The notes under the pieces were generated by a model that searched no databases, had not been told where the DNA came from, and saw only the letters and a program-made list of their open reading frames with translations. A program made the position numbers and the translations under genes. Source: Psammoneis japonica (Eukaryota). Taken from it: a DNA stretch of 64,000 nt. The stretch covers positions 1-64,000 of the forward strand of contig QPGO01000103.1 in the NCBI GenBank assembly GCA_008632985.1, written 5' to 3'. Shown piece after piece: positions 1 to 60,650 of this stretch. The stretch's first letter is position 1. Every line of letters begins with the position of its first letter.

Positions 1-1196
1 CACTCGCCATTTTCGTGCGAGAACCTCGTGAAAATGGAATTTGCACCAGAGTCTACGTGGCAATGTTTCTGCGGTTTTCGCGCGCAGGATGCAGTGCCCA
101 ATGCACAACGCACAAGACGAAAACGCACAAGACACACAACAACATGCCACACCTCATTAGCAACACCAATCGGCGGTTGTCGAACGTCACATTGCTGCAT
201 TGCCGTCATCACATCATTGCTGATGGTGGACGTGGACACCATGACCAGCCAGCAACCTTCTCTGCCTGGTCAGTTGGGCTGCAACATGGGAGATGCTGAC
301 AGCACGGCCCAAGCCAACAGGGCGGCCACAAGGCTGTGTGAGGCGTTTCGCAATTCGACGGGCAGGCTGCCGACAGCTCAAATGTGTTTTGTCGAAATTG
401 ATGGCGAGAATTTGGAAGCAGAGATGTTTCAATTCTGTTTGTGGATTTCCACCACTCCCATTCCAGCAAACTTTGATGCCAACCTTCAACCCCCGAGGAG
501 TCACAATGCAGACGAGCCCGTCAAGCTGGTGATGGCATCTTCTCTGTCAAAATGCATTGGCAAGGTCATCAAGTTCTTGCGAGAAAAATTTCCAAACCAC
601 CCAGACTTTCAAGGCTTGAGGCCATCAGATGTGCCTGAGTGGTGGAGCAGAATGTGCCCCACTTTTGAAAGAGAGTGCACTCGGCTCCACACGTCTCCAG
701 GCGGTGAACACACATTTGGCAACACTGCCACCCAGCCACTCTGTCAGGACAATCGTCTCTTCCGAGGCAATCAAACCACACCCGGTGATGACATTGGGGC
801 CATGCTTCAGAAGATTGATCTCCTGAGCATTGTCAAAAAGCTTTTCGACAAAGCCACGCTGCTGTGCGACAGGGAAGGAGCCTTGCAGCAGCGATGTTGG
901 CTTGTGATGCTGTGTTTTGCGGTGGGTCGAGGTGGTGAAATTAAGTTCAACAGCTGCATTGATTGGCGATGGCACCCTTTCTTTGAAGTGACAGACACTG
1001 GGTGGGTGGAGCTCAAGCTGCTCCGAAAGCATGCCATGGCAATGGTCCCGCACCGGCTTGAACTCCTCCTGGATTTCTGTCATTGCATGGCAAGCTTTTG
1101 GGCCATGGAAGGTGGCCTGTTTCGTTCTGGTGCAGATGAACAGGCCATTGCCAACTTTGTCTTTCCAGATCTTCACAAGTGCAAGGACAGTCAGGT

Positions 1197-1641
1197 TGCA
1201 ACACACAGCTGCTGACAAGAGTCAATGCATCACGGCGACGTGTCACAGCCTTTAAATGTCACAAAGGGCGTGACAAAATAACCTTTTGTCTGCATGCATG
1301 CTGCATTGTGAATTCACAGCGGAGTGGTTCATCGCAACCATTGGGCAGGAGGCCAGGGGTTCGAAACCCTGAGTGGGAGTTGTCTGCAGCAACGTTGATC
1401 ACTGTCGAACGCGCAAAACTCTGTGCAGTTCTGCATGTTCCTTCGCATGCACCCACACTGTTCCGCCAAAACCGTGCAGTGTCAGTGCACGTCAGCAAAG
1501 AGCCGCGTGGACACGTGATGCATGGGGAGGAGTGCAACACACAGCTGCCAACAAGAGTCAATGTGTCACGGCGACGTGTTGCAGCCTTTAAATGTCACAA
1601 AGGGCATGACAAAATGACCTTTTGTCTGCATGCACACTGCA
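1197..1641 (+). mobile_element. TRIM-like miniature LTR retroelement (445 bp)
   Basis: 109-bp direct repeats at 1197-1305 and 1533-1641, each TG...CA. 4-bp target-site duplication AGGT (1193-1196, 1642-1645). Polypurine tract GGGGAGGAG directly before the 3' repeat. Excision restores the host recombinase frame. Confidence 0.9.
1315..1372 (+). promoter_or_regulatory. tRNA-type RNA Pol III internal promoter-like sequence (A box + B box) inside the TRIM
   Basis: A-box-like CAGCGGAGTGG at 1317-1327 (TAGC.. if a TA>CA change is reversed). B-box GGTTCGAAACC at 1358-1368 within the hairpin CAGGG-GTTCGAAA-CCCTG. Spacing is about 30 bp. Confidence 0.55.
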
Positions 1642-3148
1642 AGGTGACAAAACTTGTCACCAAGATCATTCATGATGATCCACCCGATGATTGTTCCAAA
1701 AATGTTGCAAAGATGTTTTCAGCCAAATCCGGGCGACGTGGCTCCATCACGGAACTCATGGCTCACCCTTCGATTGGGATCAAAGATGTTTGTTGTCATT
1801 CAGGGCACACCACTGGCATGTTGTTGGGTTCCCATGCAGACTGCACTTTGTTTGTGCTGGGACTTGGAGCTGCTGAGGCCCTTTGTCGACATGACAATGT
1901 CGATGTCAACATGCGGGTCCCCCGACTCGAGAGCCTGGGAATGCATGTTGCTGCACAGGTGGAGGAATTGCTGATGAAAACGTTTGTCATTTCAGCACAA
2001 GGATTCAAAGACAAGCAGAGCGGGCTGCACCAAATCCTTCGGACGGGACTTGCATCATTGACAATGTGTCATGTCTGAGTGACCCCAAGAATGCAAGGAC
2101 CACAATGCAGTGGTGACGAAACTTCGCACTGCTGCCAGAAGTGCAAGCATTTCTGATGCCTGATTCCCAGGGATTTCTCCAGACGCTGTTCTTGATGAGT
2201 GGTCCGCCACAATCATGAAAGACTTCCGAGAACGCAATCCAGAAACAGCCCAAGTTGCTCCAGGTGGAGGACAGGCCCAAGTGACAGCGGTTGTCAATCA
2301 ACAGTCAAATGTTCTGTTGGAACCAAGGCAAATGGTGGCAACGCTGTTGCAAGAAAAAGAGTCTGATCGCCGCACTGTTGCCTCATTGCAAATGACCCTG
2401 CACCAGCAACAACACCAAATTCAGGAGCAACAACAAGAACTCCAGGTGTCACGAAGCAAGCTGTCACTGTTGAAAACTCTGCCGGGAGCCAGAGCATCAA
2501 GGCAGCACCCCAGAGAAACCAGCAACGCAGAGGAGAGCAACAAGAGCCCAAGACTAGAAGCGCCCTCACCTGCACAAGCTCCACCAGTCGCAACCGCACC
2601 CAGTGCTGCCGCCGCCGCAACCAGTGCCACCGCCGCCGCCCCACCTGCTGCCGCACCAAACTTTCTTCCAGCAGCTGCAAGAACTTTGACACACAATTCA
2701 GCAGCCAGGGCTGTGGCTGAGAAAAAGGACAACAAGAAAATGATGGTTTCCACGTTGTTGAGAGATTTGTTCAAAGACCGGCAGTTTCACAATGACCCCG
2801 GCTCTTGGAAAAACATCCCAGCTCCACATCACACAAGCGAGAAGTCTCTGCTCAAGCGTGCATTGGAGCTTGTTGAACACGTGGCCCATGAGGAGGACAA
2901 GACAACTCTGGAATCAAAAGAAGTGGACGACAACAACCTGTCTGTGTGCGCAAGGCATCTGGAGGATGGATGCATGGCAAAGATGTTAGAGTTTGAGGGG
3001 GTGAGCCCTGAGGTTCAAAAAACAACTGGGCAGGAAAGGGCAAGACCAAAAGCTTCCTGCTCACCTTGCCCTGGGTGGGCGAGTTCGTGTGCACAAGAAT
3101 GAGCTGAAAAAAATCTTGGACAATGACGAGCCGGGTCCGCCTTTGCAA

Positions 3149-4049
3149 GATCGGCCCAAGCCACCAGAAGGAACTCCTCCCAGACTCGGGTCCAAGAGGC
3201 GGTTTTTTGGAGCCCCCTGAAAATGACAATTGCAGGCATGGCAATGTCGAGGGTGATGTCAGTGGCACACACATTTTGAATTCACCAAAGTGACCCACTT
3301 GTTTGGGCTCTCTTACGATGTGTGTCGGATCGGCCCAAGCCACCTGAAGGAACTCCTCCGGACTCGGGTCCATGAGGCAGTTTTTTGGAGCCCCCTGGAA
3401 AAAGCAATTGCAGGTGTGGCAATGTCGAGGGCAGTGTCAGTGGCAGACACACATTGAATGCACAACAGCAACCTGCTTGTTTGGGCTCTCTTACAATGTG
3501 TGTCGGATCTGCCCAAGCCACCTGAAGGAACTCCTCCAGACTCGGGTCCACAAGGCGGTTGTTTGGAGCCCCCTGAAAACAACAATTGCAGGCATGGCAA
3601 TTTCGAGGGCAATGTCAGCAGTGTGCACATTTTGAATTCACCAAAACAACCTGCTTGTTTGGGCTCTCTTACGATTTATGTCGGATTGGCCCAAGCCACC
3701 TGAAGGAACTCCTCTGGACTCGGGTCCATGAGGTGGTTTTTTGGAGCCCCCTGGAAAAAGCAATTGCAGGTGTGGCAATGTTGAGGGTCATGTTGGTGGC
3801 AGACACACATTGAATGCACAACAGCGACCTGCTTGTTTGGGCTCTCTTGCGACATGTGTTGGATCGGCCCAAGCGCAAGCCACCAGATGGAACTCCTCCC
3901 GGACTCGGGTCCACAAGGCGGTTTTTTGGAGCCCCCTGAAAATGACAATTGAAGGCGTTGCAATGTCAAGGGCAGTGTCAACAGTGTGCACATGTTGAGT
4001 GCACAACAGCGACCCACTTGTTTGGGCTCTCTTGCGACATGTGTCGGAT
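3149..4049. repeat. Tandem array of five ~178-179 bp units with alternating A/B subtypes
   Basis: Units start near 3149, 3328, 3506, 3684 and 3862 (GATCGGCCCAAGCCACC...GTTTGGGCTCTCTT). Confidence 0.95.
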
Positions 4050-7000
4050 GGTGTCATCATGGCCGCCGCTGCTTCGCTCATGTGCGATTTCGTACAACAA
4101 ATTGCTCTAGCCACACAAGGCGTGTGTGCTTTTCGTGCTTCCGCGTGGCAAAGCCGTGCAAAAAGACCCGTGGGTTTTCGCGCTTTCACGCGAAAACGCG
4201 GCTCCGCCGTGAAAACCACGATTTTTCCTGCTCGCACTGGCGCGCCGTCACCCACCCGTCCCAACGCGCCATCGTTCGAAATTGAAAATGGCACACCCGC
4301 ATCTTCTTGCATGCCACGCCATGGTGTGGAAGGGAAAGACACACACATTGTCACATTGGCCGTTGCTTCGTCTGTCTGCCAAACAAGTTGGATCAGTTGG
4401 GATCAAAGTGGTGGGTGGGGTCTGTTGCTGTGCAGATTCACATTCCGGCAGAGTTGTCAGAGAGAAAACACAGGATCAAAGTGAGAGCAAAGAACCCACA
4501 CAAGGCACACAATGCAGCAGCACTGACTGCATGAGCAGCCGCCCCAAGAAAAAACCAGCAATCGGGGCCACATCTGACCAACATGGAAAAAATTTCCAAA
4601 TGAAGCTGACACAGGCTCTGACTGCAGTTGGCGCTGCTGTGGTCATGATGTGCTCTCTCACACATCGACAAAAGCGCAGGTTGGACGAGAAAGGCAGTGC
4701 CCACACTTGTTTGGAGCACCAAAAGTGCCCAATCAACTGTGTGGTCTGGCCACAACATCCCTCTGCCACCTGCCTGTGCTCAGCCCACCACACACATCAG
4801 AGCCCCTGCTGCAACGCCAGAGCCCACATGTTTGCCACCACCACATGCCCCCCTTGCTTCGTTTTCTTGCTGCAAAGATGTGTGCCTTGCTTTGCTCACA
4901 AAGAGAAAAATCACTGAACCCAACCAAACATGTGGAGTGGGTGGCACCAAAAGCTTGTGCACACATGCTTTTGCATGTGTGACAATGGGAAGCTGTGGTG
5001 TGTGATGCTTGAATGAGCGGCTGTGTGCTTTGCCAGCCAAAAAAGTTGCTGTGCAATGGGGCAGGCATCAGATTTGTGAAGTTGGTGTGCAAACAAAACA
5101 GAGCAGTGTGCTTTGTCATGAGATGGAGCAGGCAGGCCTCCTCAGGGTGCATCAACTCCTCTTCATTGTCTTTGTGTCTTTGCCACATCTTCAGAGTGTG
5201 CTGCAAGGTGATCTCCGCATCATTGTCTTCATCTTTCACATCCGTGTGTGTCATCTCATGTGAGGACAGGCATTGTGAAAGTTCACCCACAGCATCAGAT
5301 GACAGACCAACACAAAAGCATTGTCAAAAGATGAGCCTGTGCTGCTTCATCCTCTTGAGATGGAGAAGGGAGCTTGGCTGCAGATTTTTCTGCCACTGCA
5401 CCACTGGTTGTGACACAAGAGAATGCAGCTGCTCACACTCAACAACAACTGGCTCTCGTTGCCCACCTCTTTTAAATCACAATGGTGGGTGCTGGTGCCA
5501 CCACAGCCATTGCTTGCATCTCCTTTGTTGCTGCTGCTCTGGCTGTGCAGATTCATTGTTGTCCCCTTTTTCACTCACAATTTGTGAAGCACCTGCAATG
5601 CAAGTCCACTTGGCGCATCTTAAAAGGACAAATGATGTGATCAAATGACCTCACACCTCAGACAATCATGCGCGCCATTGTCAGAAGGGAGGGGGGCAAA
5701 CACAAGGTTGACAACAAAGTGGGGGGGGACAAAGTTTGGGTGGAAAAATGGTGTGTTTGTTGAATTTCATGGGGAGGGTTGGTGCACTGGCAGAGTGCCA
5801 GGGTGACACATGCATTGGCTGCACTCTTGCATGGTGGCCAACAGAGACCAAACAACCAGCCAAAGTTTCCAAGTTAAGGCCAATGTGAGATTTCAAAATG
5901 TGGTTGACACTGCTGGGACATTGTCGTGAGATGTTGTGAAAAACATTGTGTGAGATTCCACAGCAGCTGGCATGTCTTTTGAAACTAAAAAATCATTGCC
6001 ACCACACACCACAAGTGGCAGATGTGAGGAAACAAAACAAGCAAGTTCCTTGCACAGAAGTGCTTGACAAGCGAAAACAGCAGCATTTTGGCAATGGTGC
6101 AGCACAAAAATGAAAGCCATGCAATGATGTTTTTTTAATGTCTGTGCCATTTTTTTTGTCATTGCAGCCACAAATCAGGGTCATGTGATGATCAAGCAAC
6201 CATGTCTTGCTGAAGCTTGTGGAAAAGCTTTGCAAGACCATGACATGGATGAAATGAAACAATGATGCAATGAGCCAACTTTTTCATTTCATTTTGCTTC
6301 ATTTGCTGCTTGTGTCCTGCCACAAATTTGCACAAACTGTCATTTCTTTTTTCCTGCACACTCAAGCTGCAACAAAGAAAACTTCTGTGACATCATTCTG
6401 GACAAAACACTTGGTGCCCAAAGGCCATTTTGGAGTTCTGAAGGCACTGTTTTGGGAGCTCATTCACAAATGAAATGTTTTTTTTGTTCCTTCATTTTTA
6501 CATTTTTCATGAGCTGGGGCTTGTGACAAACTCTTAAAAAATGTGACATCCAAAGAAAACCAGCTGAAACTCCACATCTTCCTAGAGATTTCTGCTGAAG
6601 GTGTGGCGATGGTTGTTGTTGACCATCGCTGTGTGCAACATGGGAGCAAGAGTTGTTTTCAACTTTGTCATCGCACAACAAGAAGGGGTGCTCTTGCATG
6701 CTGTGCAGCTCACTTCAGAGTGGTGCAGGCCTTTGCTTTCATGTGCTCATGGCTCCACCATGTGAAGTCAGTGCAGCATTGCTCATGACTGACAGCTGAC
6801 AAAGCACACCAGCAGCTCAGACCACCATGCTGCACACATCATTTGGCGGCACCCTGCTGTGTGGCAAAGATTGCGTGATTTGTGAGAAGCGCGCACAGCT
6901 GCAGCTGAATGAAGGAACCCCCTTTTCAGGTGACTCAAGAAGAGGGTGTGCATCCTGTCAATGTGTGGCAGAAAAGGCTTGCAAAGTCCAAGACAGTGTC

Positions 7001-10000
7001 AACAAACTGTTGCCATCAGGCAGCACTGCCACAGACATTTGTTGTGCATGGCTGTTTTTGTGCCAACAGCAAGCATGGTGCACTGGGTGGCAGATCAGCT
7101 GCTGTTGCCTGGTGAAGAAGCAAAAGAGCGCCAAACAAAGTGCTTTTTCAACTTGGCTTCAGCTCTCAGCCAGAAAAGATTGCATGAAGAACAAAAGCTG
7201 TTCCAGGTCATTGGCTGATGGATGCAAAGCAGTGCAAGTGTTGAAAGTGCAGCTGACAAAACCAGCAGCAGCTCTTTGCAGCTGTGCCCTCCTTCATCAT
7301 GATGTTTGCTGGAGACAGACAGCTGTCTGCCTGTGGCTTGATGACAAGCCACCTTGCAGCCATCTTCTCACATCAAACAGCACCTGGCAGGCTGCACTGC
7401 AGCTGGTGAGAAATGAGAAGCACCTGTGAAAATGTGCCAGCTGGGGTTGTTTTTTGTTTCTTGCAACGCCCAAAGAACAAGGTGATTGCTGCCATGACAA
7501 CCACCCTGCTTCTGCTGTTGCTTCCTCTGTCTGGCACTGCCTGCAAGTCTGTCTCATTTTTGAGGTTGCTGTGTCAAGCACTTGATGCAAAAGTCATGAG
7601 AAGCAAAAACCCTTCAAGATGCCAACATGGCAAAGCCTTGCATGGAATTCTGTGCTTGGCAGCTGAAGCAGCAATCATCTTGAAAGAGTTGATGCTGCTC
7701 CTCAATTTGAGATCAGAAGAGTGAGACAAAGAATTGAGGGCATGATCTCAGCTGAAGCAGGAACCAAAATGCTCAAAGAAACAGGGAAGGCAAGACCAGA
7801 AATGTCATTTGACATGATGGTGGCACAGCTTTCAGCAGCAGCTGGTGGCCAACTGTGCAATGCTGGAGGTGCAATGGAGAAGGTGGCAGCAAGGAGAGCA
7901 CCCACTTGGAGCAATGGACAAGTGGCACTGGCATCATGCAGCCAAAATGCTCTGCAGTGCAGCAAGAGAGGGGACAAACAAAATGTGAGTGCCAAAAAGC
8001 AAAGTGCTGCTGTGCCCACCCAGCACAAGCAGCTCAGAACTCTTCACAGAGCAGCGACATGGTGTGAGGTGGGAGGCAAGCAGCTGGTGCTCCAGTGTGA
8101 AAATGTTTGCCAGCAGCCTGGAGAGACAGCACTTGGGTTGGGGCTCAATGCACTGGACAAGAAATGGGAGCATTGGCTCTTGCACATGCATGAAATTTGA
8201 TGCTTTGCTGAATGGCTGTGTGTGTCGTTGTCTCCATGAACACAGAGCTGAGACAAAAGTTTAAATTTTCAAGGATGAACACCATGTCATTTTTCATTCT
8301 TAGAGAGAGGGACATCTGTGACATTCTTGGGCTTCACTGTTTGCCTGCAAAGACTTTGAACAATGACGCCAATGGTTGGGTTGTTTTGTTCAACTCAGAG
8401 GAAACTGCTGATTTGGGGAGATGATCCAGCGTGGGGCAAGAAGATTCTTTCATGCTTTTGAATGATTCAAGGGCTGGCTGCAGGTGATGTGAAGGATTTC
8501 AACAAGTGCATCATGATTGCATCTGGGCCTGGCAACAATGCTGCTAGATCAAAGGAAAGCAACATCTCCAGCAACGCAACCCATGCTGTTGCCGCCAATC
8601 TCAACAGGAAGCAATGCTGTCAATGATGGCATTTTCAAGAAGGTGTCAGAAGGAACACACTCAAAATCTCTTGCACAGTCACCTCCAACCCACACCATTG
8701 TGGGCTGCGCAAGCAACTTCAAGTGGAAAAGCAGGGAACCAGGTGCAAGCATGTGGGTTTGCAAGATGAGAGCTGCCCAAGAACATTTTGTTTGCAGCCC
8801 TCTGTTTCATGTGGCTCCAGGGAGAGAGACATGTGCACTTAACTTTCTTGTCCCTGTGATGGGTTTCATTGACAAGAAAACTCCAAGAATCAGTCAGAGG
8901 ATGCAGATGACTCAGCCCCCAGTTTTGTGCAACACAGTGCAACAACTCTGTGCAAGCTCCAGGGGAGGACAGTTGAGAGCCTGGTTCTTGCCAACAACTT
9001 TGACTGCAAAAAAAAACCAAACCTGATTTAAAGTGCTGTTGCACCTTTGCCCAGCAACACCGGCGCCAGCCAACTCACACCTCCGGCACACCCCAAAATT
9101 GGTGCGGCAGAAGTGCGCGCAATTGGCCTGAATTGGCGTCTCCCTGAGGAGACGCCTGATGGAAACAGTTGGTGCAGAGAACACAACAACACTTGGAGTT
9201 TGCTGCGGCACCACAGAGGACAGTTGCATTTTTGGGAAAAACTCACATGAGAGCCATGAAAGAAGCCAAAAGGAAGTCAAAGGAAGAGTGCCAAACCACT
9301 GGCTGTCGCTCATCAAGGGGGAAACCTCATTCAAACCTTGAAGAAATGAAACAACAGAAAGATCACTGCATGCAACAGAGAGCTTGGTTTGCCAGCAAGC
9401 AAGGGAGGGTTCATCCAAGACTGGGAGACAAGAAACAGGAGCACTTGATGATTCGGCGAGTCAGTCGTCAGGAAAGACATTTTCCATGCGTGGAAACCGC
9501 GCTGGGTCTTGCACAGAAATGCCGGTGCACACAGCAAATGGATGGCAGTCACTTGTTGCCAAAGGGAGGTTTGCACTCACACTTTTGTCAGCTTCACAAC
9601 AGAAGCAGTGCTTTCACCACAAGCAGCGAAGGACTTGATTGGCCAACGGGAACAAAGAGAGTCATTGGAAACGGAAGGGCATGGGGCATGAGAAGCTCGG
9701 AGACTTGACAAAACATTCATTGTTGGGGTTTGCCAAAGCATGTGGAATTTGCACTGAAGTTCTTGGATCCGCAGAAAACAACGAAAATCATGATCAATGT
9801 GCAGCAAACGACCCACAAGGAGTCGACGCCAATCATTCTCCACTTGGTGACGTTGCCAAACATGCTGAAACAAAGGCACACCATTGACAGAAAGGGCCAG
9901 CATGGTCGTGGGAGACCCAGCAAAATGCCATCTGAGAAGGGCAACATCAGCACGAGAGCGTGCGCAGAGACACACTCAGGGTTTCTTGGTGGGCAGCTGC

Positions 10001-11045
10001 CGCAGAATTGCAACAGCTTTGACTGCAGAGACAACTGGGTTCAGGTGGTTCCATCCAGAGTGACAACAAGAAAGGGACTTCATCTCAGAAAGCCAAGATG
10101 CTTGGTGGCATGAAAGCAAAGGGCATGTCACTGGCATTGAGTGAGTTCCTTGGTCACTTTGGGCGTGCAAGAGGGCTCCAATGTGGCTCTCAGACTCCTG
10201 CTGCAAATGACCATGCAAGGCATTGCAGCTGATGACTGTCATTTGCATTGTCTCTGCTTTCAATGTGCAAGGTGTGGCTTTGACAGCATGCCCTGCTGCT
10301 TGTTGCTCAAAGAACAATGAAGCACTGCCTGCCCCCCAGCTGGCATGCCCAGAGTGTGGCACGCCCAAAGAAGAAGCACAAACCGGCATGGCGGGTGTCT
10401 CAGCTTGTGTGGAGCACACAGCAAGAACAAGAGATGATGAACCCGGGGTGCAGAGACAGCACAGCGGTGGAGAGCTCGTCGTTGTGTGAGTGCTTCAAAG
10501 ATGTCTGTCTTCCCTTGCTCAGTTGCGGTCCGCTCCCCCAGCCACAGAGCCTCCTGATGGTGGGCAGGCAGCCAGACTTCAAGGTCATCTCAAATGACTT
10601 GAAATGACTGCAAATGACTCGCTCTGCCTGTTGACAAATCACGAGTCTCGCACATACACATCATCATTAGCATAAAATAGAAATCAACATTTATCGGATA
10701 ACATGTTTTCTTAAATACTGTATGTGTATCGGACTATTGGAAAATGTTCACTCATTTAGTCTATCATTACATTTGAAACTTTTTTACATAGGGAAATTGT
10801 GTTCAACGGATATCCTTAACAAAATGAACAATCTTCGTTCATTAAGCTTATATTACATCTCAACTGCTCTCCAAGAGTCGATCAAAATTTCAAAGACCAC
10901 CGCATGCACCACGCGTACAGTACCGAAGCCACGTTGATTTCTACGTGAGTCGGAGCATCAAGCCGTTGGAGGCACCACGCATTCGCAGAGCGGGACATCA
11001 TCTCTTTTTTCATTCGTTTGCCTCACACACACGACGAGAATCACC

Positions 11046-19170: not shown

Positions 19171-19332
19171 TGCTATGATCTTAACAGTTATAACGCCGCA
19201 ACGACGATGATAAAAAATAAAAATGAAGTAAAGTCGTGGTCTGGCTTGTGCGGGTCGGAGGGAAGTTTGACTCGCCTGTCGCATGTCGCTGTGATGGAAG
19301 CCCGACTTCCCCAACTCTAGCTACTTCTAGTA

Positions 19333-20340
19333 GCCAGAGAGTGCAAGTTTGCACACTGCACACACCGCACACCCGCTCAGGAGCAAGGGAGATCATTTTC
19401 TCAAGCTGCCACATGTGCACTTGTTGCTGACAATGTTCTGAATTTGGTGGTTGCTGGCTGCCCCCCCGGGCCTCCTCTCTTGCACACACAGAGAGAACAG
19501 GAGGAGCAGGCCACTTCAGCCCAGCTGTGTGCCCATGTTCACAGAGCATTTTTCTCTTGTGCAATGGCAGAAAACTCCACTTGCTTCTCTGTGCAACAAT
19601 GGAAAATTCTGGTTTTCTTCTCTTTCTTTTTTCTCAACAATTGCGGCGGGCTCCACTTGCTTTTTTCTCTCTTTTCAACACAGAGAAAATTGGGCTTTTT
19701 CTTGCTCTTCTTTCTTTCTGCAGCACAACAAAAACTTCTGTTTGACATGTGTGTCATGCACACAAACAATGGAAAAAGAAGCTCTCTGCTGCTTGTTTTG
19801 TTTGCCTTTGAGCTGCTCGTCAGCAAAAAAAACCTGAGTGCATGTGCATGCATTGCCACTGCAAATGTTGTGCCATGTGTGGCCCAGCAGTGCACTGAGC
19901 TTTGGGCCAGAGTGCACCCAGCACCGCGAGAAAGCTTGCGCAGTGTGGCTCAGATGGCAATTGAGAAAGGAGAGCGGGCAGCCAAGAGACCCCCCCCCCA
20001 AGAAGGTCTCTAACTTTTGAAAGATGCTGCTGACCCACCAGGCCAGAGACTGGAAAGTTTGCAGATGATGGCAGTTGGCTGGGCAACGGGGCGGTGCACA
20101 ACAACCTGTTTCGAGAGCTTTCTAGAGAAAAGATCGACCCCCACACACAAAGAAGAGCTGCATCAGATCAATGGAACACTGTTGCCTGTCACTGTGGTGC
20201 AATGTTGCAGCAATGTGATGCTTCACACCACCAAGAAAAGCTCCTAGTGTGTAAAAGGCAGTTCCTGCTTGATGCTGCGTGACGCTCCAGCCCAAGACCT
20301 TCCCGCATGTGTGACGAACGCAGGTCCCTGCAGCAACACG
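19333..20340. mobile_element. Small TpA-depleted non-coding island, probable non-autonomous repeat
   Basis: No TA found between 19333 and 20010 and only four in 20011-20340. Flanks are TA-rich. No credible protein and no termini identified. Confidence 0.55.
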
Positions 20341-49449: not shown

Positions 49450-52400
49450 ATCCCGTTGCTTCAACAAGACCTCGAATCTCGCATGGTGCAGAGCTCGTGA
49501 ACAGGAGGTGCCCTTTTGACTGTGATCTCTCTGTTTCTCAGTGCTGTCGTCATGACACACCAGTCTGAAAAATCTGGATTGTCTTGCAAAAATGCTTGCC
49601 ACATGAGAGAGGCAGAACCAGGAGCAGCTCCCCCACTTTGTTCTCTTTCTTGTGTCCAGAGTGCTGGGGGCTGGCTGGGAGCAAGGGCCAAAGCTTCTGT
49701 GGCACGCTCCAGCTCTGGGTGGGGCCTCGCACTGCTGAGCTGTGACATCAAGAGTTTTTTGGATCATGCTGCATGTCACACACATGCACATCTGCATGTG
49801 ATCTTCTATGAAATTGTTTCATGCTCCCTGTTTTGCGAAGCCAAAGGCTGCCCATGATTTTCGACACTCGCGAGAATGAAAATGTGGGCTGGGTGACGTG
49901 CCCCAGCTGCACATGAACCAAAACATGCAGAAAAATGACATTGGTGCAATTTTCTCACAGTCTTTGACTTGCAAACAAGCTTTCACCACCAAAAGCATGG
50001 GCTTGTCCAAATTTTGATGTTTTGCAATGCTGGCAAACAAGATTCACGTCAGCATTGCAACATTGTCGTCTTTGTGCAACACATGTTTTTTCATTGCAAC
50101 AAACGAGTTGCAACACAACAGATGTGTTTCACCAAATTTTGAACATTCATGTGCCATTGCTGTTTTGAGGTGCCAACACAAAACATTTGTGTGCACGCTT
50201 CGTTGTGGCAGTCTGCTTGCACAAAATTTTCTGCAATGTGAGCACTGACGTGCAGTCAGCATTGTTTCTGCAGAAAAATTTTATGACGTGCATTCCATGA
50301 AGAATTGAACACCCATGAAAAAATTGTTTGAATGTTCCTTTGCACTCCAACTGGGCATGAAAGCCAGGTGCGCAAGTGTTTTGACAAACAGCTTCAATGC
50401 ACGAAGCTTGCACAAGTTGTGCTCAAAAGGAGGGATCATCATTTTGTGCATCCCCCCGGGCTGGAACATGTTGGGTGTGTTCTTCAATGTCTGCAGAACA
50501 CACCCATGCAAACCATCAACAATGCACTTCAAGTGTGAAGGAGGAGATGTGTTTGCAAAACTGCCTCTTTTTCTGTTGGAGATCACCCACATTTTCGCTG
50601 CTCAACAAATTCACTGCAGAGCTCACATGCAGAATTCTGTGGCTCAAATGTCACACGGAGTCCCACCTGGTGGAGTGGAGCATGTCCTTTGGACACAATG
50701 ACCCAGAGGCCACCAGGTGTGGGGAGCTTGGACAGTGCTTCTCTTTTTGCCACACCCAAGTTTGGCTGCAGTGCTGCTCTCCAGATCTGCAGCAGGGTGT
50801 TGGCAAGTCTGTGATTTGCTGCCCTTTGCAAGTTGTGCCCTGCAGCTGACAAGCAAAGAAAACAATGAGGCAGGGGGGGGGCAGAAGAGAGGCAGGTCTG
50901 CTGGCAGGGCACTTCGTGTCATGTTTCCCAGCAAAAGCATTTCACCTTTCACACCCCCCAACAAACAGGAGGCTGCAGTCTGTCCTGTTGCACACACAAA
51001 CACTTGGAGAGAAGTGAGAGTGGGGCTCAACAGCAAGGGAGAGAGTGGGGAGTGCAGTGCTTCTGCGTGTCTGCAGTGGCTTCAATGGACCATGTGTGTG
51101 CACCCCCTTTTGCATGGTGTGATGTCTGTGGGGTTAATTGCGAAATGTGGCATCATCAGCAATCTCCCTCCATCAAAAAATTTAGCACACAAAAGTGCAA
51201 AGTGCACAAAGTGAAAAACACCGACAACCATGACAAGCACCGTCAGACAAAATGCCATCCCAGAGAGCCAGCTGATGGCCTCCACTTGCCCCTTTCAAGG
51301 AGATGACACAAGACACACCAAAGAGTTGGTGGTTGAAAAGGGGCAAGTGGAGATCAAAGAGTCAAACAAAAAACACAGGATTGCACTGAGAGAGAATTTT
51401 GCTGGATTTCTCCATGGTGTGAGGATGCAGCAAGAGTGGTGGTTCCCAATGAAGACAAGGGAAGCATTGGAAATGGGCAAAGGCCAGCAGAAACACTTGT
51501 TGGCACCTTGCTTGGGGGTTTGAAGTTGACGTCATGCAAGCTCGCAATTGCTGTTCTGGCTGAGACAAAAGGAAAAAGGAGACAACATTGTTGTGAAGCC
51601 GACAAAGTTGAGTGGTTTCTTCCATGAGCACTGCCTGAACAACAAAGTTGTGACAAGGAAATTTGGCACTAAAACAAATGGCAACAAGGTGCACTTTGTC
51701 AGAGTTGGTGGTGATGGTGACAGTGCAAAGGCTTTGGCAACAAAGGACCAGTTTTCCTGGGACAGAGAAGACCAACCAGAAATGCCAAGGTGCCAAGTGA
51801 CCAAGCTGCATCACAAACTCACTGTTGGGGTCAATGAAACTCTGCTGAGCACACTTGAAGAGTTTTGCATGGACAAGAACTTGACAGTTGAAGAGTCTGA
51901 AGGTGAAGAAAAAGATGTGAAAGATGACAATGCCCACGCAAAAATGAAGAAGAACATGAGGCACCCAAACCTGCATCAGCTGTCCCCAAGGAGGAGGAGA
52001 AGCAATCAGAGGAACCAACTTGGGAAGCTCTGGAAATGGAAAAGGGTGTGCCTGTAGATGACACTTGCTTCCCACAGCTGTCCAGGTTTGGCAATGGCAC
52101 AAAGGAGTGGGAGCTGTTGGCATTGGCACAAGATGTTGCAAAGTTCCGACAAGATCAGAGCCAAGATGCCATTGTTGGTGACTGCGATCCAATGCTGTTG
52201 GCGCCAATCCCCAGCACACGGCAAGTGAACTGCAAGAACTTTTGCAAGGGCTGTCAAAAATGGAAATGGCCTCAAAAGGTTCTGGAGCACATGGGAGGTG
52301 GTGCAAAGACCAAAGACAGCAATGCTGCCATCTCATTGGGAGCCGAGTGGCTTTGCCAGTGGCTGGCTGCTGAGCACAAAGTTGAGTTTCTCACAGCGGC

Positions 52401-55400
52401 AAAGGAAGCTGGCACCCCAGTCACACAACAGATGAATCGAACATCTGCAGGTGCCATGTGGAGTCAAGCCAATGTCAACGTCAATCAGCAGAGAACAACA
52501 TTGCAGCATCTCCACTGCCAGCTGGGAAGAAAATTTTTGTGCTGGAGAAGGATGTCCAGTCACTTGGTGATGGATTCATCCCCGCAAGCTGTGGAAAGTG
52601 CCGCTGCAAGAAAGAAGAAGGGAAGACACTGGAAGTCATTGATTGCTGGTCATGCTCTGTTCCAGAGCTGGTGTGCGCTGAAACAAAATTCCAGCTGAAG
52701 AAGAAGCAGATCGCTGCTGCAGAACATGATGGGGAAAAGGAGGAGCTGCCATTGGCCAGTTGCATGACTCATGATGGCAAGGGTTGGGGAATTGTGTGTG
52801 GAGGCAATCATGGAAAAAAGGGGTGGGCTGGTGTTGCCAAACTGTTCACCCACAGTTCATTGCACAGAAGATCTCCAAAGGAAAAAACTGCTCATGTTCA
52901 AGACAGTGAGCAAACAACAAAGGGTGGGTGCAGCACACTCAAGCACATGCAAGCATGCAGTGCACTGAGGACAGCTCTGAAATGCTGGCTGACACAGTCT
53001 CACTTTCCATCAACAAGGGGATGGAAAAGACAGTTTTGTCTTAACTTGTCGGCACGCAACAAGGAGAAGGGACTGGCACAGAGGCCGAGACAAGGCTCAT
53101 CCCCAAGGAGGCGTTTGCTGCATGCACAGTGGAGAAGGAGTCAATCAATGTGTTGCAGCGCAGCACCACAAGTGGTGAAGAAGGCACACCTGTTTCCATT
53201 GTTGGTGAGGCACTTGCTTTGCAGGGTGGGTTTGCAAAATTGTTCTCACCGTGCCCAAGTTCACGATCCACATCACTGGAGACCTCACGTTTTGTGCTGA
53301 TGTCCTTGGGAAGCCCAACTCAAGTGGGCATTGGCGCCACATTTGCCTGCTGAACTGGATGGAATGAAATTAGTGTCAGCATGAAAAAAGAGAGAAATGG
53401 ACAATCAAGAAATTGAAAGCTGTGCTTGAGAAGTTTCTCAACTTGAAAAGCACTGACACAGTCATGGGGGTGTGGGAATCAATGCACTGTGCCAAAGTCA
53501 GTCCTTGCCTGTGTGTTTGTCTGCCTCTTCATGTTGGAATTGAGCTGTTCAACAAGGTGTGGGATGAGTTTGCAGAGTGGATTGATGCCAAGTTAGAGCA
53601 ATTTGATGGTGAAGAGGTTGCAGTGCGGGTCAAGGCATTTGCTGCAAAAAGTGTGCTGGATGCTGCCACAGAGGTGCAAGCTCACACCAAAGATGTCACC
53701 AAGCCAGAAGAGGAGAGGGCAAATGACTTGGGTGAGCAAGCAAAGGCGATGGAGTTGGCAACAGCAATGGTGGAAAAAACAATGCAAGAGTCAAAGACGG
53801 GTGTGAAGAGAAAAAGTCCTCAAATCTTGCAAAGATGCAGTGGCCAAGCTTGAGAAGGATCGTGGGTGGCCAGTTGACAGCACAGCCATGCAGGTTGAGA
53901 TGACTCTGAAGAAGCATGGCATCAACAGGGAGGCGTGCCATGGTGGCAACTTTGACGGTGTGTCACGCCGCAGGTTGGGCACCTCCATTGCTGACATCAT
54001 GCCAGAAACAAGAGAGCAACTGCTTCAAGCCAGAAAGCAATCTGATTTGACTGATGCAGAGGCAAAACAAAAATGTGACATGCACGGGACTCTGCTTGGT
54101 TGGCTGGATGCCTTGTTCTCTTCAATGCAAGCCATCCACCCATTTGACAAATGAGGAGCTTGAGGAAACTGGAAAGTGCGCTGACCTTGTTGCAGAACTT
54201 TGGTTTGAGTTGGGTGTGTTGGTCATGACAAAAATGCACCAGGCATTGGATCATCTTCTTGACCAAGCACGGGATCTTGGCAAAGTTGGTGACAAGTTAA
54301 AACACCACATCGAGGCCGAACATCAAGTGTCTGCAAATGCTGCCAAACTGGCCCAGTGCATCCCAAGGTGCAACCAAAAACATGACTGTCAGCTGTGAAA
54401 TTGTGAAATTGAAGACAACTCAGTCACAATCTTGCAGAAGGAAAAGCTTGCAAAGGGGTGCAAGCAAACTTTGAATCCTGAGCATGAAAAGTCTCACACG
54501 ACAGCTTCAAAAAGGCAAAGGCAGTGAAGACAGAAAAACAAGAGAACTCCAAAGATGGCAAAAGTGCACAACACCAGTGTGGCTTCTTTGCACTCTGCCT
54601 TTCTTCCTTTTGTTTGGATTTTGCAATTGACAATGCACTGAGATGATTGCAGTGCAAAGAAAGTGCACCGCTGTGCTGTGACTGCAGTGTTTTGGTGTCA
54701 AAAAGACATTTTTTGGCTCCAAGCCTTGGATTTGTGAGACATCATCACTGTGTGGAAATGCACACAGAGATTTGGTGCACATCAGGTGAGCACCACATTC
54801 TGCACACAGGGTCCCCGTGCACATGCGTGAAACCATCCTGACTGGCGGGCTTCTTTTGTTGTTGCTGCTGACTGTGAGGACGAGTCATTGTCTGGTTGTG
54901 AAAAGCATGCAAACGTCCATGACTGTGTGCAAAAATGGTGTTGTGCATGTGCACAGACTTCATGTGGAGTTGTCTGTGTCCGGAAGGCTGCACAATTTGC
55001 TCCATGCCAAAAACCTGCCCGAACATGTCACCAAAATCTGGGAGGTCAAGAGAAGAGCAGGGGAACTCTGTGAGCTCTCCAACCTCAGGGCAGCAGGGAG
55101 TGGAGCAAGTGCATGTCATCTCAAGGCTGGATTGTCACTTGGTGGTCAATTTTGTTTGGGGCTTGCAAGCACCCAAAAATCACTCAGATTCGTCACACCA
55201 ACAACAGTGTGCACGTTCACCAAAAATGTGCCCAGCAACAGGTCGAACTTTGTCCATTTGCAAGATGTCATGGAGTGCATGCACAATGAATGCATGCAAG
55301 GGTTTGGGATCTCCAGAGCAACAAAAGCAGATGTGTCTGCAGCCAGTCAAGCACCAGTTGTTGGCCTTTCCTGGAAAGTTGCAGCTTGTCTGTCACCAAC

Positions 55401-58400
55401 AGCCCAATTTTGGCAAAAAACAGCGGTTTGTTGAATGTGACAACTGCGCCCAATGTGACAATTGGCATTTGAAGGTTGATCAGTGCAGCTCATGTGAAGG
55501 TCCAACAGCCCTGATGGGGGCCACACACACAAGTGTTTGGGGGTGCTCAGAGGCATTGCAAAACAACACGGGCAAAGTGCGAGAAAACTGTGAAATCATG
55601 AGCTGTTTAAAAAAACACCGCCAAACAATGATCCAGCCTTGATCCCGCACATTCCTTTGAATCATTCAAGCAGTTGCATGCACTGCCAAGACCAAATGTG
55701 GTGCAAGCTGCAAGTTCCTTTAAAAACAGTCTAAGCAGATGTGTGGCCACAACCATCATAAGAACCTGTCCTGGCTGGATCACACCCATGATCACATGAC
55801 ATCATGCAGCCTTTTTGCTGATGTTGCAGAGTCACACTTGTGAGTGCTTTCCAAACTGAATCATGCAGCACTTTTGTGCATGCCCCAACTCCTTTGTCAA
55901 TGAATGAATGTGCGACCATGTTAATTTCACACATTTCATTGCTGCTGCAGGTTTGATCATTCAACCAGAGCATGAAACCAACTGCATCGATGAAGGCGGA
56001 TTGAAACAGAACAAAAACACACAATGAGAACGGTGCCACCATGACAACAAGAATGCAACCACGGGGCTAAAACAAGCCATGTGAAGGAGACAAATTGATC
56101 ATAAAATCAAACTCATGCATGACTTGTGTGTGGTGAGCAACTTCTTCATTGTGTGAGCATCTGCCTGGAATTGCTTGAGAGAAGGTTCAGCAAATTGCTG
56201 TGCATCATGATGAGACAAGAGTGGTGCGCAAAGCACCTCAACACTGAAAGTTTCTTGCATGTGATCACACCACAGGTTTGTCTTGGATGGGACAAAGCCA
56301 CGCGCACTTTGGTTGCATCAAAAAAGCTGCTTCTGGGTCATTTCGTGTGTTGACCCAGAGGGTGTGATGTGGGGGTGTGACCTCGAGCATGTGTGCACGG
56401 TCATTGGGCTGTGCAGGTGTGTGCACATGTGTGAGGTGCAAGCACAACACATGCAGAATTGGCACTGACTGAGTTGACATGCGGTGGATTTTCCGCCAGT
56501 GCACAATCTACGTGGTCTGCATGGAAGACAAAATTGTGTTGGTCTCTTGTGGTTTCACATGTCATTGAAATTTCTTTGGCCTTGCAGAGATGCACACCCA
56601 AATTCAAAAAAGTGAGGAACACCCCAAAACACATTTTAGAGGATGAACAAAAAAAATTCTGTTTGACGGTCTGAACAGGGTCACCCTGAAGCTCTTCTCA
56701 AATTATTTTCAGCTTCCACAGAGCAAAAAATCCACTGTTGCTGAAAAAGAAGCACCGTCGATAAAATGGACCCCCCAATCCTTCACATGCAAACAGCAGC
56801 ACAACGTCAACACCCAACAACACCATGGCAAGCAATGCAAGTCTCATCCACTGATCTGCTTGCAGGCATTTCCAGAGAAGATCAACACAGTTGGACAACA
56901 TTTGGGCACTGCATTCCTGGGCAAAGTTGGGTTTCTTCTCATTGCTTGTTGTCGTGTCATTTTACAATGTTTTGACCATCGTGCATTTTTGCTTTGAAAC
57001 TTCTGGTTGCACCAACCAACAACAGCTTTTTCTGCAGGGTGTGGCCAGTTGGACAGTCACATTGAACCCAAACGTGTGCAACCAAGTGGCCCCACCCTGG
57101 CTGACCAACATTTCCAGAGGAACAGTGATGTCAGGTGTGGTCAAATGCATGACCCAGTTTGTTTGGAGAGGGTCCAAAGGACAGCTCATTCGAACATGAC
57201 ACAAGCTGGCACTTGTCTTGCACCTGTCCTTTGTGCAGCACACATTGCAGAACTCGCGCGCCACACTGCACAGCAGCCCCACAGTGATGTTCGAAGTTTG
57301 CCCCCACCGACGGAAGTTGAAGCCAATCAGAAGAGCTCAATTCAGGTGCAAATGTGTCAAGACCATCAATTGTTTTTTTTAAATGCACATCATCTTCATT
57401 TGACATTTCATTCCTTTTCTCCCACAGACAGACACCAACTCAACCTCAAATGGGCACAACACACTGATGACTTTGAGTTCACTGACCAGCTCATCCCTCC
57501 ATCCGACTTCAAATTTTCAACCCATTTTCTCTCTCATTCCCTCACTGAAGTTGAGTGCCGCATTGCACATGTTGTTGAGCATGAGCCCTGATGAACAACA
57601 AAAATGAAAGACACCGCCAATCACTTTGGTGGCACCGTGGGCATTCAGTTGCAGAATTGAAAGAACCCAATGAAAAAGGCAAAGAAAAACATGCACTCTC
57701 ATCTTGCTTGCATCAGCACAGGTTCATCATCCCCATCAAGACCAGCCCCAAGGCAAGTTCAATTGAATGTGTTTGGAATGGTTGATGACCAATTTGACAA
57801 TGGAGGGCAGAAACACAAGCAATGCAAACAAGGTCCCACCCACAAAAAGGGCCATGACAAGACCTGCTCCCATTCCAAGCACTGCATGAAGAGTGGGAAT
57901 GCAGTCAAGGTTGAGAAGAAACTCCAAGACCAAGACAACATCAGCCATGAGGTTCTAAATGGGATGAAACACAGTGGCAGAATTTGGGCCCTTCTTTTTT
58001 TTCAGCAGCCAAGAAGCACTGTGGAATCCAAAAATGGCTCTCCACCCAACACAAAGGACCCACCTCCAACTCTGACTGCTGTGACAATGAGCGCCAATGC
58101 CACACCATCCTGCTCAAACACAACCCTCTCTCACCGCAAGTGCTGAAAGAAGAAACAAAAAAGCAGATTCCAAAATTTTCTGCCAACAAGTCATCCTTTC
58201 CAGCAAGCACGCAAGCACTTGTGTTGCTTTCCATGACTTGTGTCTGTCCAGATTCAAGAGCGATTCAAATGACATGAGACATCATGGATCAGAAGCTGCA
58301 ATGGCATCAGAAACAATTTCCTGCTGGGACTCTGTCATTTGCTGTGCCACAAGATGACAAGTCTGTTGCTCCAGATGCTGTGCACTGTGAGATTGAGGGT

Positions 58401-60650
58401 GTCACAATTTGCATCATGTGATGGGAACTCAACAGCATTGACATCGAGTTGACATGCATGGATTGCGGGGGCAAGCTTGCACACCAACAATTTGTTGTCA
58501 CAAGAGACTGTCCACTTGCTCCTGTTTTTGACATCAGAGGACCTGCCGATTGGCTCAGCTCCATGTGGCACAAATGTGAGACAAGTGCAGATTGTCGTGT
58601 CACTGTGATGACAGGCGGCTCCTGCACTCTTTGCTGCTGCACCTGCAAATGGCCTGCCCAGTTGATGTGCAGCATGCCTTGGCAAACAACAGCTTTCATG
58701 TGACAAAGACAACCACATGCTGCATTGATCACATGATGCAGCAACATGGAAATGGCCAGGTGATTTCAGCGTTCCTGCACCAAATGATGGCAGCAGCCTG
58801 CAAGGACATGGAGATGTCCCATTGTTCACAATCAATTGCAGCCAAGTCCAAGTCAACAAAAGCACTTTCAGAGTTTGAAGATTGGACTGGACAATGTGGA
58901 CCAACAGGAGAAAACATTCAGTCAATGTGTGATGCTGTGGCTGACTTGGAATTGACTGAATGTGGTGTCTTGGACAAGATGTGTCACATGCCAGAGATGC
59001 AGTTGGTCGGGAGCAGCACAAGTGTTGCAAGTGACCACACCTTTGATCAGTTGAAGAATTGCTCGAAAACTGAAACATCTGGACTCTTTGCTGTGGGGGT
59101 TGAGACTGGTGAGATTGGTTCTGCCGTTTGTGTTCCATCCTTGGAAACCAAGGACTGTGCTCACGCAGCAGAACAATTTGCAAAGCGGGCTGACATGCAT
59201 CCAAAAGTTCATTTCTCGGATGCTTGGCTGAACAACAAATCGTTCATCTGGAAGGAAACATTTGATTGTGAGATGGGTTGTCATCTTGGATTGTGGCGCT
59301 GGATGAATTGCATCACTCAGACATTGCAGAAGACACATGTTGACTTTGGAAAGGCAGTTTCTGACTTGAAGCTTGCGTGTGACACAGCAAGGAGCTTGAC
59401 AAAGCAAGGGTGGCTGAGGCGTTGGCCTCTGGCAAGCTGAATGGAAAGAAGCACACCCCAGCAAGAGATCCAACAGAGCTCAAGGGGAGCAAGCTGCAGA
59501 AGAATTGTGCTGCAAATGTTTGAAAGTGGGCACTGCCTTTGGAAGAGAGAAACACAAATCTTGATGCATGGTTTCAGAAGTGCAAGCAGTGTGCCGTGTC
59601 ACCTGGGGCACCGCCGGTGCAAGGACGATGCGACCCTGATTCTGGAAAGCCGCTCTTCACCAAGGACACAAAAGATGCTGCAGAGAATGCTGAGAAAAAG
59701 ACAGCACCCAGTCTCTGTGAAGCAACAAGTCAGGACAAGATGCACAGGGTGGTGCTGCCATTGAAACACTCCAAGTCAAAATTGAACACCCACAAATCAA
59801 ATGTTCTTGGAACGGAATCAAGACTCGAAAAGCGCCACGATCTTGTCAAGAATTTTGCAAACACCAGCATGAGATCATCGCTTGCCAATTCTCAATCCTT
59901 GCAAGAGATGTGTGAGCACAACTGTGACATTTGCGAGCACATTAAAATTGATGAAATGACGCCAGAGGAACGTGCAGCGACTCCACATGCATTTCGTGGT
60001 GGGCACTGTTGTCGCTCATTGCAACCACAGCAGGTTGCATTTCATCAATGGGCTTGCAAGGCATGCTGGAGCATCGCATGATGTTCATCACAATGTCAGA
60101 CTGTTGAAGGAAGACGGTGGTGAGTGATTTTTTTCTGAATGTGTGGACCAACTGGTGATGCTTGACATGAAGGCACACGACAAAAGCAAGGACGTCAACC
60201 GGTGTGCCTGCAAACTCTGCGGGGGAGCAGTGCCGAGGTTGCCACATGCCACCCGATCAAATCCATGCACCAAGAGGAGCAATGTAGAATCTATTTTGGA
60301 GCCACCAAAAAAGAAATTGGTGGTGTCAACCGATTTAGAAACACAGCAAGACACAGCTTTGTGCGCTCCAAAATGCCCCCCAGAGCTGTGGAGGCGACAG
60401 CACCACGACCTGCATCCTCGACGCTGACTTCTCCTGTCACAACAGTGCCTCCAGCTTCCCTGCTTCAGTTCAATCCATTTGTTGTACCGTTGGGGTTTGT
60501 CATGCCACCAAACAACCAGGCAATGCTGCCGCCGATCAACAGTTTCTGTTGTTTCAAAGCAGCTGGTGCTTTCCATTGGTCCAAGCAAAACATTTTGGGC
60601 ACTGCAATGCGAGGAAGGGTCCCTCATGACCATTGGTGTATGTTTAAGCA
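49450..60650. other. TpA-depleted, TpG/CpA-enriched transposon-rich domain (right block)
   Basis: About 30 TA seen by eye in ~11.2 kb. CpG is also scarce. ORFs are Tyr-free and Cys/His-rich. TA is frequent on both flanks (ccttaaataa ~49425; ttttaaagtagtttatg ~60655). Confidence 0.93.
51230..54560 (+). mobile_element. Decayed Transib/RAG1/Chapaev-like DDE transposase
   Basis: Ordered motifs across broken frames: GG(N)HGK (~52800), ITGDLTF(C)ADVLGKPNSSGHW-R-HIC (~53270-53350), PLHVGIELFNKV (~53525), GINREA(C)HGGNFDG..RRRL (~53920-53975), TKMHQALDHL...G..G.....IEAEHQ (~54225-54330). Confidence 0.72.

Follow-up and report, generated by a model that had tools for sequence, protein, structure and literature searches.

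Differences between the terminal repeats of a miniature mobile element point to TpA-directed hypermutation of mobile DNA

We analysed positions 1 to 64,000 of contig QPGO01000103.1 (Psammoneis japonica, assembly GCA_008632985.1), a stretch of DNA referred to below as the window, in which a 445-bp element flanked by two long terminal repeats (LTRs) of 109 bp interrupts a gene related to tyrosine recombinases. The two repeats, which would have been identical at the time of insertion, differ by transitions in pyrimidine-purine dinucleotides and by nothing else. We regard it as quite probable that most of these sites were TpA (TA) ancestrally and that a regional process, directed at mobile DNA and changing TpA to TpG or CpA, acted on the two copies independently.

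The repeats at 1197-1305 and 1533-1641 could be aligned without gaps over their full 109 bp, with identity ceasing at both repeat ends, and the same pair was recovered by BLAST and by separate repeat finding. The two copies are identical at 99 of 109 positions and differ at the remaining 10 (offsets 16, 17, 31, 32, 47, 48, 73, 83, 102 and 103). All ten differences are transitions and fall into six pyrimidine-purine steps, with no transversion and no indel. The preliminary description of this DNA had listed the same six sites and ten transitions, and the alignment reproduces each of them exactly. Given as 5' repeat/3' repeat, the steps read TG/CA at offset 16/17, CA/TG at 31/32, CA/TG at 47/48, CG/CA at 72/73, TA/TG at 82/83 and TG/CA at 102/103. 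None of the 97 positions outside these steps has changed, and three CpGs are kept in both LTRs, as had been claimed for the shared CpGs. Nine of the ten differences are compatible with an A>G or T>C change within a TpA, which turns it into TpG or CpA. When 10 positions were drawn at random from 109, at least four adjacent pairs were obtained in 0.37% of 2,000,000 draws, a figure which ignores the further requirements that all changes be transitions and that the doubles be TG versus CA only. A restriction to transitions is not typical of the neighbourhood either, because variable columns outside pyrimidine-purine steps in a nearby tandem array are often transversions or mixed (15 of 28). The pattern of LTR differences is neither chance nor local default.

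The element lies in a region which is nearly free of TA. Three such TA-purged islands, A, B and C, are present in the window (Table 1) and together contain 54 TA in 22,402 bp, corresponding to a TpA frequency of 0.0024. Inside the islands we counted 0.6-3.0 TA per kb (about 2.8 in the island of the element) compared to 36-40 outside, and 208-235 TG plus CA per kb compared to about 150 outside. The ratios of observed to expected dinucleotides in the islands were 0.04 for TA, 0.32 for CG, 1.84 for TG and 1.74 for CA, versus 0.59, 0.97, 1.18 and 1.19, respectively, in the rest of the window with its Pfam-matched genes. Stretches of some 10 adjacent 1-kb bins contain 0-7 TA each, the island edges are sharp and resolved within 250 bp, and ordinary gene region lies between the islands. 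In island A, the tyrosine-recombinase gene and the LTR element represent mobile sequence. A Pfam search matched none of 25 further island open reading frames (ORFs) and none of the three island-C ORFs among 18 ORFs scanned. In islands A and C, ORFs of 150-340 codons occur on both strands in several frames; they lack Tyr and have a Cys content of 5-15%, and such long spurious ORFs exist because TAA and TAG are gone and TGA is the sole remaining stop. CpG behaves differently from TA. Its density per kb is 38 in positions 1-5000, where the element is located, but amounts to 6.2 in positions 5001-9000 and to 15 in island C, compared to 53-58 outside. Because CpG loss is thus uneven, varying six-fold among island sub-regions, while TA loss is uniform, the two losses are uncoupled: two separate processes are at work, and the TA process is far more complete around the element. 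The uneven CpG density at equally near-zero TA suggests a second process, or differing ages or methylation states of the sub-regions.

The direction of the change can be read from tyrosine codons. The island ORFs contain not a single Tyr in 2456 residues, compared to 3.09% Tyr in 5792 residues of the Pfam-matched genes, and their content of Cys (7.0% vs 1.9%) and His (5.4% vs 2.6%) is higher than in those genes. Among 45 homologues tallied for the host protein, the Tyr content was 1.9-5.3%. An alignment of 40 homologues gave 90 columns with a consensus of at least 60%. The window matches the consensus in 77 of these columns, and the 13 disagreements include all five columns with a Tyr consensus, i.e. 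5 of 5 Tyr columns changed versus 8 of the remaining 85 (Fisher p 2.9e-5). Four of the five lost Tyr codons are now TGC, TGT, TGT and CAT, and hence of the form TGY or CAY. These conserved Tyr codons that now specify Cys or His show that TA turned into TG or CA and not the reverse, which excludes a C-to-T reading of the kind known from repeat-induced point mutation (RIP).

Another member of the family carries what is probably the ancestral state at sites of the internal region. Contigs of a public sequencing run, X1, were placed on the window at 80% likeness, and a second run of the same sample, X2, yielded a single contig of 226 nt which corresponds to window positions 1312-1537 and stops at the LTR borders; no other part of the stretch was matched in X2. 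Relative to the window, this contig shows 14 differences, comprising seven C>T, four G>A and three T>C, with no A>G. A TA of the X2 contig corresponds to CA in the window at sites 1414, 1434, 1446, 1450, 1493 and 1496, to CG at 1506/7 and to TG at 1519/20. In addition, the contig has CA for TG of the window at 1342/3 and 1486/7, and CG for TG at 1448/9. Compared to the X2 contig, the window copy lost 8 of 8 TAs but 1 of 14 CpGs (Fisher p 2.8e-5). In run X1, the family is split at 1434/5 into roughly 71% TG and 26% CA and at 1519/20 into roughly 74% CA and 26% TG, as estimated from contig depth; the X2 contig has TA at both. Among the variants listed, three sites with a TG/CA split in the family have TA in the X2 contig. 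A TG/CA split combined with a TA-bearing copy is as predicted by independent hits on the two strands of an ancestral TA. The variants listed for X1 are located outside the LTRs, and the TA ancestor at the LTRs themselves rests on the other evidence presented here.

We also compared the LTR counts with simple models. With all sites derived from CpG at a single rate (four double, one single and three untouched sites), the counts had a p value of 0.011; with all sites derived from TA (four, one and one), the p value was 0.17 and the model was not rejected. A doubly mutated LTR site is far likelier to have been TA, because the window copy lost about 1 of 14 CpGs versus essentially all TAs, and a rough hand calculation from these loss fractions gives a per-site likelihood ratio of TA to CpG above 100 for a site changed in both LTRs. 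Loss of TA from the islands, the Tyr codons, the TA-bearing X2 contig and the model fits all back the earlier proposal that TA rather than CG was ancestral at the TG/CA sites. The change was also fast. Nine of the 12 putative TA site-copies in the LTRs (about 75%) have changed, compared to 0 of 97 positions outside the steps, for a rate ratio to background of at least about 45, and a fast, targeted process after insertion, as envisaged from the outset, agrees with these counts.

The loss of TA depends on the flanking bases. For each flanking context, survival was calculated as the TA density in the islands relative to that outside them, which presumes a gene-like starting composition; it was 0.53 for TTAA, 0.19 for CTAA/TTAG, 0.14 for CTAG, 0.05 for ATAA, 0.05 for GTAA and 0 to 0.02 for CTAC, GTAC, ATAG, ATAC and ATAT. 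YTAR accounts for 37 of the 54 TAs surviving in the islands versus 259 of 1649 outside (p 3e-17), and the TA which is retained in both LTRs sits in TTTAAA, the most resistant context. The gains in the islands are greatest for ACA and GCA, and of the eight TAs in the X2 contig, seven have the form RTA. By hand calculation, the survival ratios agree with an additive per-strand model whose rates are about 2.7-3 for A-TA and G-TA, 1 for C-TA and 0.3 for T-TA. Survival of CpG in the islands, at 0.25-0.63, is nearly independent of context. These results suggest a preference TAY > TAG > TAA on the strand of the changed adenine, which is the same as RTA > CTA > TTA on the other strand.

The tandem array in island A, with five copies of a 178-bp unit, represents a second record of the mutation spectrum. 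Thirteen of its pyrimidine-purine steps are variable: seven of these hold CG, two hold TA and four hold TG and CA only. The array also shows a higher-order period of 356 bp, and over 112 nt the copies become identical when purines and pyrimidines are collapsed, which means that they differ there by transitions only. Cytosine methylation of transposons is known to lead to decay of CpG. Similar to such methylation-linked decay, CG-to-TG/CA transitions are found in the mobile DNA of the window, both in the array and in codons changed from Arg to Cys or His; the removal of TA, on the other hand, is beyond the reach of CpG decay. A slower, separate erosion of CpG also acts here and probably accounts for the CG/CA site of the LTRs.

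Taken together, we favour the following course of events. A 445-bp element resembling the TRIM class would have inserted into the tyrosine-recombinase gene of a larger mobile element, thereby duplicating the target AGGT, and its two LTRs, identical at insertion, would have diverged afterwards. A regional process, far faster than background and limited to sharp-edged, kilobase-scale islands of mobile DNA, would then have changed TpA to TpG or CpA, i.e. A to G on either strand. According to this scheme, the four TG/CA sites would be ancestral TAs struck on opposite strands in the two LTRs and the TA/TG site a TA struck once, and the CG/CA site would most simply be a separate CpG transition caused by the slower second erosion in the same islands. 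Demonstrated components of this scheme are the anatomy of the repeats and their insertion, the composition of the islands, the direction of change, its dependence on context, the high copy number, the restriction of the process to certain regions and its speed compared with background. With regard to the enzyme, the leading candidate, after a proposal made for Bigelowiella natans (see below), would be one that deaminates adenine in DNA at T-A, the product being read as G. Modification of thymine, i.e. T-to-C on the other strand, may leave the same trace and is inseparable from adenine deamination by sequence alone. The target of tRNA adenine deaminases is A34, invariably preceded by U33, and bacterial TadA reads U-A-C; the TAY preference would fit such a U33-A34 substrate of TadA/ADAT-type deaminases.

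A number of observations weigh against the TA ancestor, and most of them bear on an alternative that we consider unlikely, namely ordinary decay of methylated CpG, in which the four TG/CA sites were CpGs whose 5-methylcytosines were deaminated on opposite strands, and depletion of TA is a separate matter. One LTR site is directly CG versus CA, the islands are depleted in CpG as given above, and Cys codons of the window stand opposite Arg six times in the two closest homologues. Five variable steps of the array contain CG, TG and CA together, so that CG was ancestral there. Among the 24 variant rows listed outside the element in contigs of host-gene paralogues, nine are single CG-versus-TG/CA differences and one is TA versus TG; the remaining rows include three TG/CA doubles, six other transitions and two transversions. 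Such CG-heavy differences between paralogues are, however, expected from two processes with TA already exhausted in all copies. At 1506/7, CG in the window and TA in the X2 contig require two steps if TA was ancestral. Three further points concern context: the first LTR site would be CTAA, a slow context, at the TA/TG site it was the slow strand that changed, and the 5' LTR retains an ATAA although this class survives at only about 5% in the islands. The survival values themselves depend on the starting composition that was presumed, the family shares are rough estimates from one sample, and the X2 contig was obtained from that same sample. Decay of CpG may have contributed at individual TG/CA sites, and single LTR doubles cannot be assigned with certainty. 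What speaks against CpG decay as the general explanation is that CpG loss is mild around the element, that the window copy kept three CpGs in both LTRs and 13 of the 14 CpGs which the X2 contig carries, yet lost all eight TAs, and that the single-rate CpG model fits the LTR counts poorly. The flat context dependence of CpG survival gives no basis for dividing CpGs into fast and slow classes, and the three sites with a TG/CA split in the family are TA, not CG, in the X2 contig.

We consider it very unlikely that the differences are older than the insertion or were imported, either since the repeats were never identical and are not reverse-transcribed LTRs, or by gene conversion or recombination with another member of the family. 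The abundant family is polymorphic at TG/CA sites and could have provided donors, and the LTR mechanism is deduced from structure, with no primer-binding site, gag or pol found. The ends TG..CA, the purine tract and the borders at 1305 and 1533 nevertheless suit the anatomy of an LTR element, and AGGT on both flanks argues against recombination between elements. Furthermore, the six sites span all 109 bp and alternate in state, unlike a single conversion tract, and the same spectrum is found in the host gene, which represents a single lineage. The reverse direction, a RIP-like C-to-T change at CpA with CA/TG as ancestral state and the X2 contig as the hypermutated copy, we hold to be barely credible. 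Context alone gives no direction, and the seven C>T and four G>A differences to the X2 contig could be read in this way. The islands are nearly free of TA, though, rather than rich in it, conserved Tyr codons became Cys and His codons, and family sites split into TG and CA would need an intermediate ancestor. In B. natans, the measured direction is likewise TpA to TpG/CpA (bioRxiv 10.64898/2026.01.13.699255).

Several other candidates were rejected. Neutral decay is incompatible with the lack of differences outside the six steps. RIP acts in the wrong direction, given the observed/expected ratio of 0.04 for TA in the islands and Tyr codons that were lost and not gained. GC-biased gene conversion has no reason to act on TA only, and selection against UpA in RNA is unable to make the two LTRs of one insertion diverge. 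Editing of an RNA intermediate by ADAR would have left the LTRs identical, as both are copied from one template.

The element itself looks like a dispersed, very high-copy, 445-bp non-autonomous insertion of the LTR type, similar to TRIM elements, and its anatomy (Table 1) would be consistent with mobilization by reverse transcription. Its terminal repeats open with TGCA and close with TGCA. Excision of positions 1197-1645 fuses frame 1 to frame 3 and restores the reading ..DSQ-V-TK..; in 11 homologues of the host protein there is no gap across the junction, and the closest of them reads DSEVTKK. From run X1, 1236 contigs could be placed on the window, with a summed depth of about 1e5 over the element versus about 1e2 over the flanks, and loose ends of contigs coincide with the element borders 1197, 1305, 1533 and 1642. 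One X1 contig passes over 1189-1683 with six other letters in between; it belongs to a paralogue that has diverged (about 200 letters, 33 of them different) and lends weak support to an empty site. No further copy of the element was found within the window by nhmmer, sensitive blastn or a word search after purine/pyrimidine collapse. A pattern scan with the LTR gave no match in collections of metagenome contigs and genome contigs, and the pattern of the internal region gave none in the metagenome contigs.

The TRIM/SMART class comprises miniature LTR retrotransposons. The element resembles this class in its total length of 445 bp, its terminal direct repeats of about 100 bp with TG..CA, its short internal region with a purine tract, the 4-bp target duplication, the absence of coding capacity and the very high copy number. 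With regard to coding capacity, no gag or pol was found, and the open frame of the element had no protein matches. In contrast to the class, the element has no recognised primer-binding site complementary to the 3' end of a tRNA. No TGG-type site is present immediately past 1305, where an LTR element would be expected to have one, and the window contains no tRNA gene for comparison; the site may be mutated. This counts against an LTR element and is included in the weighing above. No tRNA was found in the window and no Rfam family in positions 1000-1900 at E up to 10. Between about 1320 and 1373, we noted motifs that we take to be similar to the A and B boxes of tRNA genes, together with a hairpin resembling a T-arm, in a region for which ARAGORN and Rfam call no tRNA. 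As a result of the duplicated AGGT, the insertion starts with GT at 1195 and ends with AG at 1643, so that a segment of 449 bp with introner-like geometry could be removed while preserving the frame. Introner-type transposons are known to create introns. GT start, AG end, length and preservation of the frame are shared with these transposons, here as features of the sequence, whereas, unlike in the case of introners, the host gene is itself inactivated.

Table 1 Features of the window discussed in the text.
Feature	Positions	Strand	Basis or remark
Host gene, N-terminal part; putative Crypton-like tyrosine-recombinase family; 0 Tyr in 398 residues	1..1194	+	homologue search, structure model
Left target-site duplication AGGT	1193..1196	+	same four bases after 3' repeat
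5' LTR, 109 bp, TG start, CA end	1197..1305	+	contig loose ends at 1197, 1305
Internal region, 227 bp; 0 TA, 14 CG, 23 TG, 25 CA	1306..1532	+	sequence counts
Purine tract GGGGAGGAG directly 5' of 3' LTR, putative polypurine tract	1524..1532	+	role suggested by position
3' LTR, 109 bp	1533..1641	+	contig loose ends at 1533, 1642
Right target-site duplication AGGT	1642..1645	+	matches 1193-1196
Host gene, continuation past insertion; near-invariant Arg and Tyr of ..RSGH..DxYxD.. both His	1644..2075	+	homologue alignment
Tandem array, 178-bp unit, 5 copies, within island A	3149..4049	+	second mutation-spectrum record
TA-purged island A, extends past window start; 27 TA in 10,654 bp	1..10654	.	dinucleotide counts
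TA-purged island B, between genes; 2 TA in ~900 bp	19332..20244	.	dinucleotide counts
TA-purged island C; 25 TA in 10,835 bp, CpG 15/kb	49450..60284	.	dinucleotide counts

The gene interrupted by the element was assigned by homology and predicted structure. A search of a representative protein library with its ORF 1-1194 gave 341 homologues (E up to 0.001). An AlphaFold model of one of the homologues, the 708-residue protein P0041, had a mean predicted local distance difference test (pLDDT) score of 76.9, and the Foldseek matches listed for this model (E up to 0.041) were all tyrosine recombinases, including Flp, Cre and its variant Tre, XerH and lambda integrase. The alignment of the homologues contains invariant Arg, Gly-His and Tyr columns, which we read as putative catalytic motifs. 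Based on the recombinase-fold matches and on the His residues that replace a near-invariant Arg and Tyr in the window, the insertion is predicted to lie within an inactivated gene of a Crypton-like mobile element. The pieces of this gene are found at 1-1194, 1644-2075 and 2164-3099, with a stop and a change of frame between 2075 and 2164. Pfam gave no family for these pieces nor for eight homologues that were scanned, a sequence search of the PDB with the host family yielded coiled-coil noise only, and relatives of the recombinase family were absent from a collection of viral contigs. The eukaryotic tyrosine-recombinase family that includes the host gene is large and uncharacterised, and Pfam has no model for it.

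The remainder of the window is occupied by genes with long uninterrupted ORFs, which match the Pfam families Fam20C/Fringe, UDPGT, UCH, WLM, LMBR1 and DUF1350, and by two neighbouring long ORFs with multiple WW domains at 38146-40369. In this region of normal TA content, 18969-19171 and 23761-23982 form a diverged duplicate (81.5% identity over 222 columns with gaps), both copies of which retain TA. The best protein relatives in the databases of two long ORFs of the window reach only 40% and 53% identity, and the lineage is for this reason considered to be poorly sampled.

RIP of fungi converts C to T, mainly CpA to TpA, and produces TA-rich and AT-rich DNA. The process proposed here is comparable to RIP as a regional, dinucleotide-specific transition hypermutation that is directed at repeats and mobile DNA and kills transposon genes, but differs from it in that TA is removed and CA/TG is gained. 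A closer precedent is found in B. natans. Mettrop et al. (bioRxiv 10.64898/2026.01.13.699255) report that 231 of 302 nuclear mutations in mutation-accumulation lines of this organism fell into integrated giant-virus and virophage regions, that 230 of these 231 mutations were A>G or T>C, all of them placed on TpA by the authors, and that the rate was about 6e-7 per site per generation, i.e. about 1000 times that found elsewhere in the genome. They describe 124 clusters depleted in TpA and enriched in CpA and TpG, defined by at least three 1-kb windows with an observed/expected ratio of at most 0.43 for TpA and at least 1.52 for CpA plus TpG. Among the TpA-depleted coding sequences, reverse-transcriptase and DDE domains were enriched, and an ADAT2-like DNA adenine deaminase was proposed.

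The islands of our window lie within these cut-offs. Both cases share transitions that are restricted to TpA and lead to TpG or CpA depending on the strand, confinement to foreign or mobile regions and TpA-depleted clusters rich in CpA and TpG. The TpA frequency is 0.0018 in the low-TpA genes of B. natans compared to 0.0024 in the islands, and TA makes up 6.0% of dinucleotides in the value reported for B. natans compared to 4.0% outside the islands in our window. The window does not appear to represent the B. natans reference genome, as indicated by this difference and by protein searches that returned no close named relative and no match bearing a B. natans name. The carriers are viral inserts in B. 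natans and tyrosine-recombinase and miniature LTR elements here. The rate was measured de novo in B. natans, whereas ours is an indirect lower bound of about 45-fold taken from the LTR pair. Erosion of CpG and a flanking-base preference (RTA = TAY) were seen here; the words 'CpG', 'trinucleotide' and 'LTR' do not occur in the text of the preprint.

In searches of the full-text literature, that preprint was the only report found of a targeted hypermutation from TpA to TpG/CpA (bioRxiv 10.64898/2026.01.13.699255). The window constitutes independent evidence, derived from sequence only, for the same process in apparently another organism and on transposons. New are an internal clock, in the form of initially identical LTRs with no background change but a loss of about 75% of the putative TAs, a test of direction which requires no experiment and makes use of conserved Tyr positions that now read Cys or His, and a dependence on flanking bases by which the range of enzymes to be considered is reduced. 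In genomes of this kind, TAA and TAG stops as well as Tyr codons vanish from mobile DNA, which leads to long false ORFs, failed family searches and misled gene callers. Hypermutation of TpA might not be specific to Bigelowiella. We put forward only tentatively, and with slightly less than even confidence, that it also occurs in a second, poorly sampled eukaryotic lineage, affects transposons as well as viruses, has kilobase-sharp borders and a preference TAY > TAG > TAA, and represents a widespread defence by DNA adenine deamination, a kind of 'reverse RIP', which would operate beside an independent erosion of CpG.

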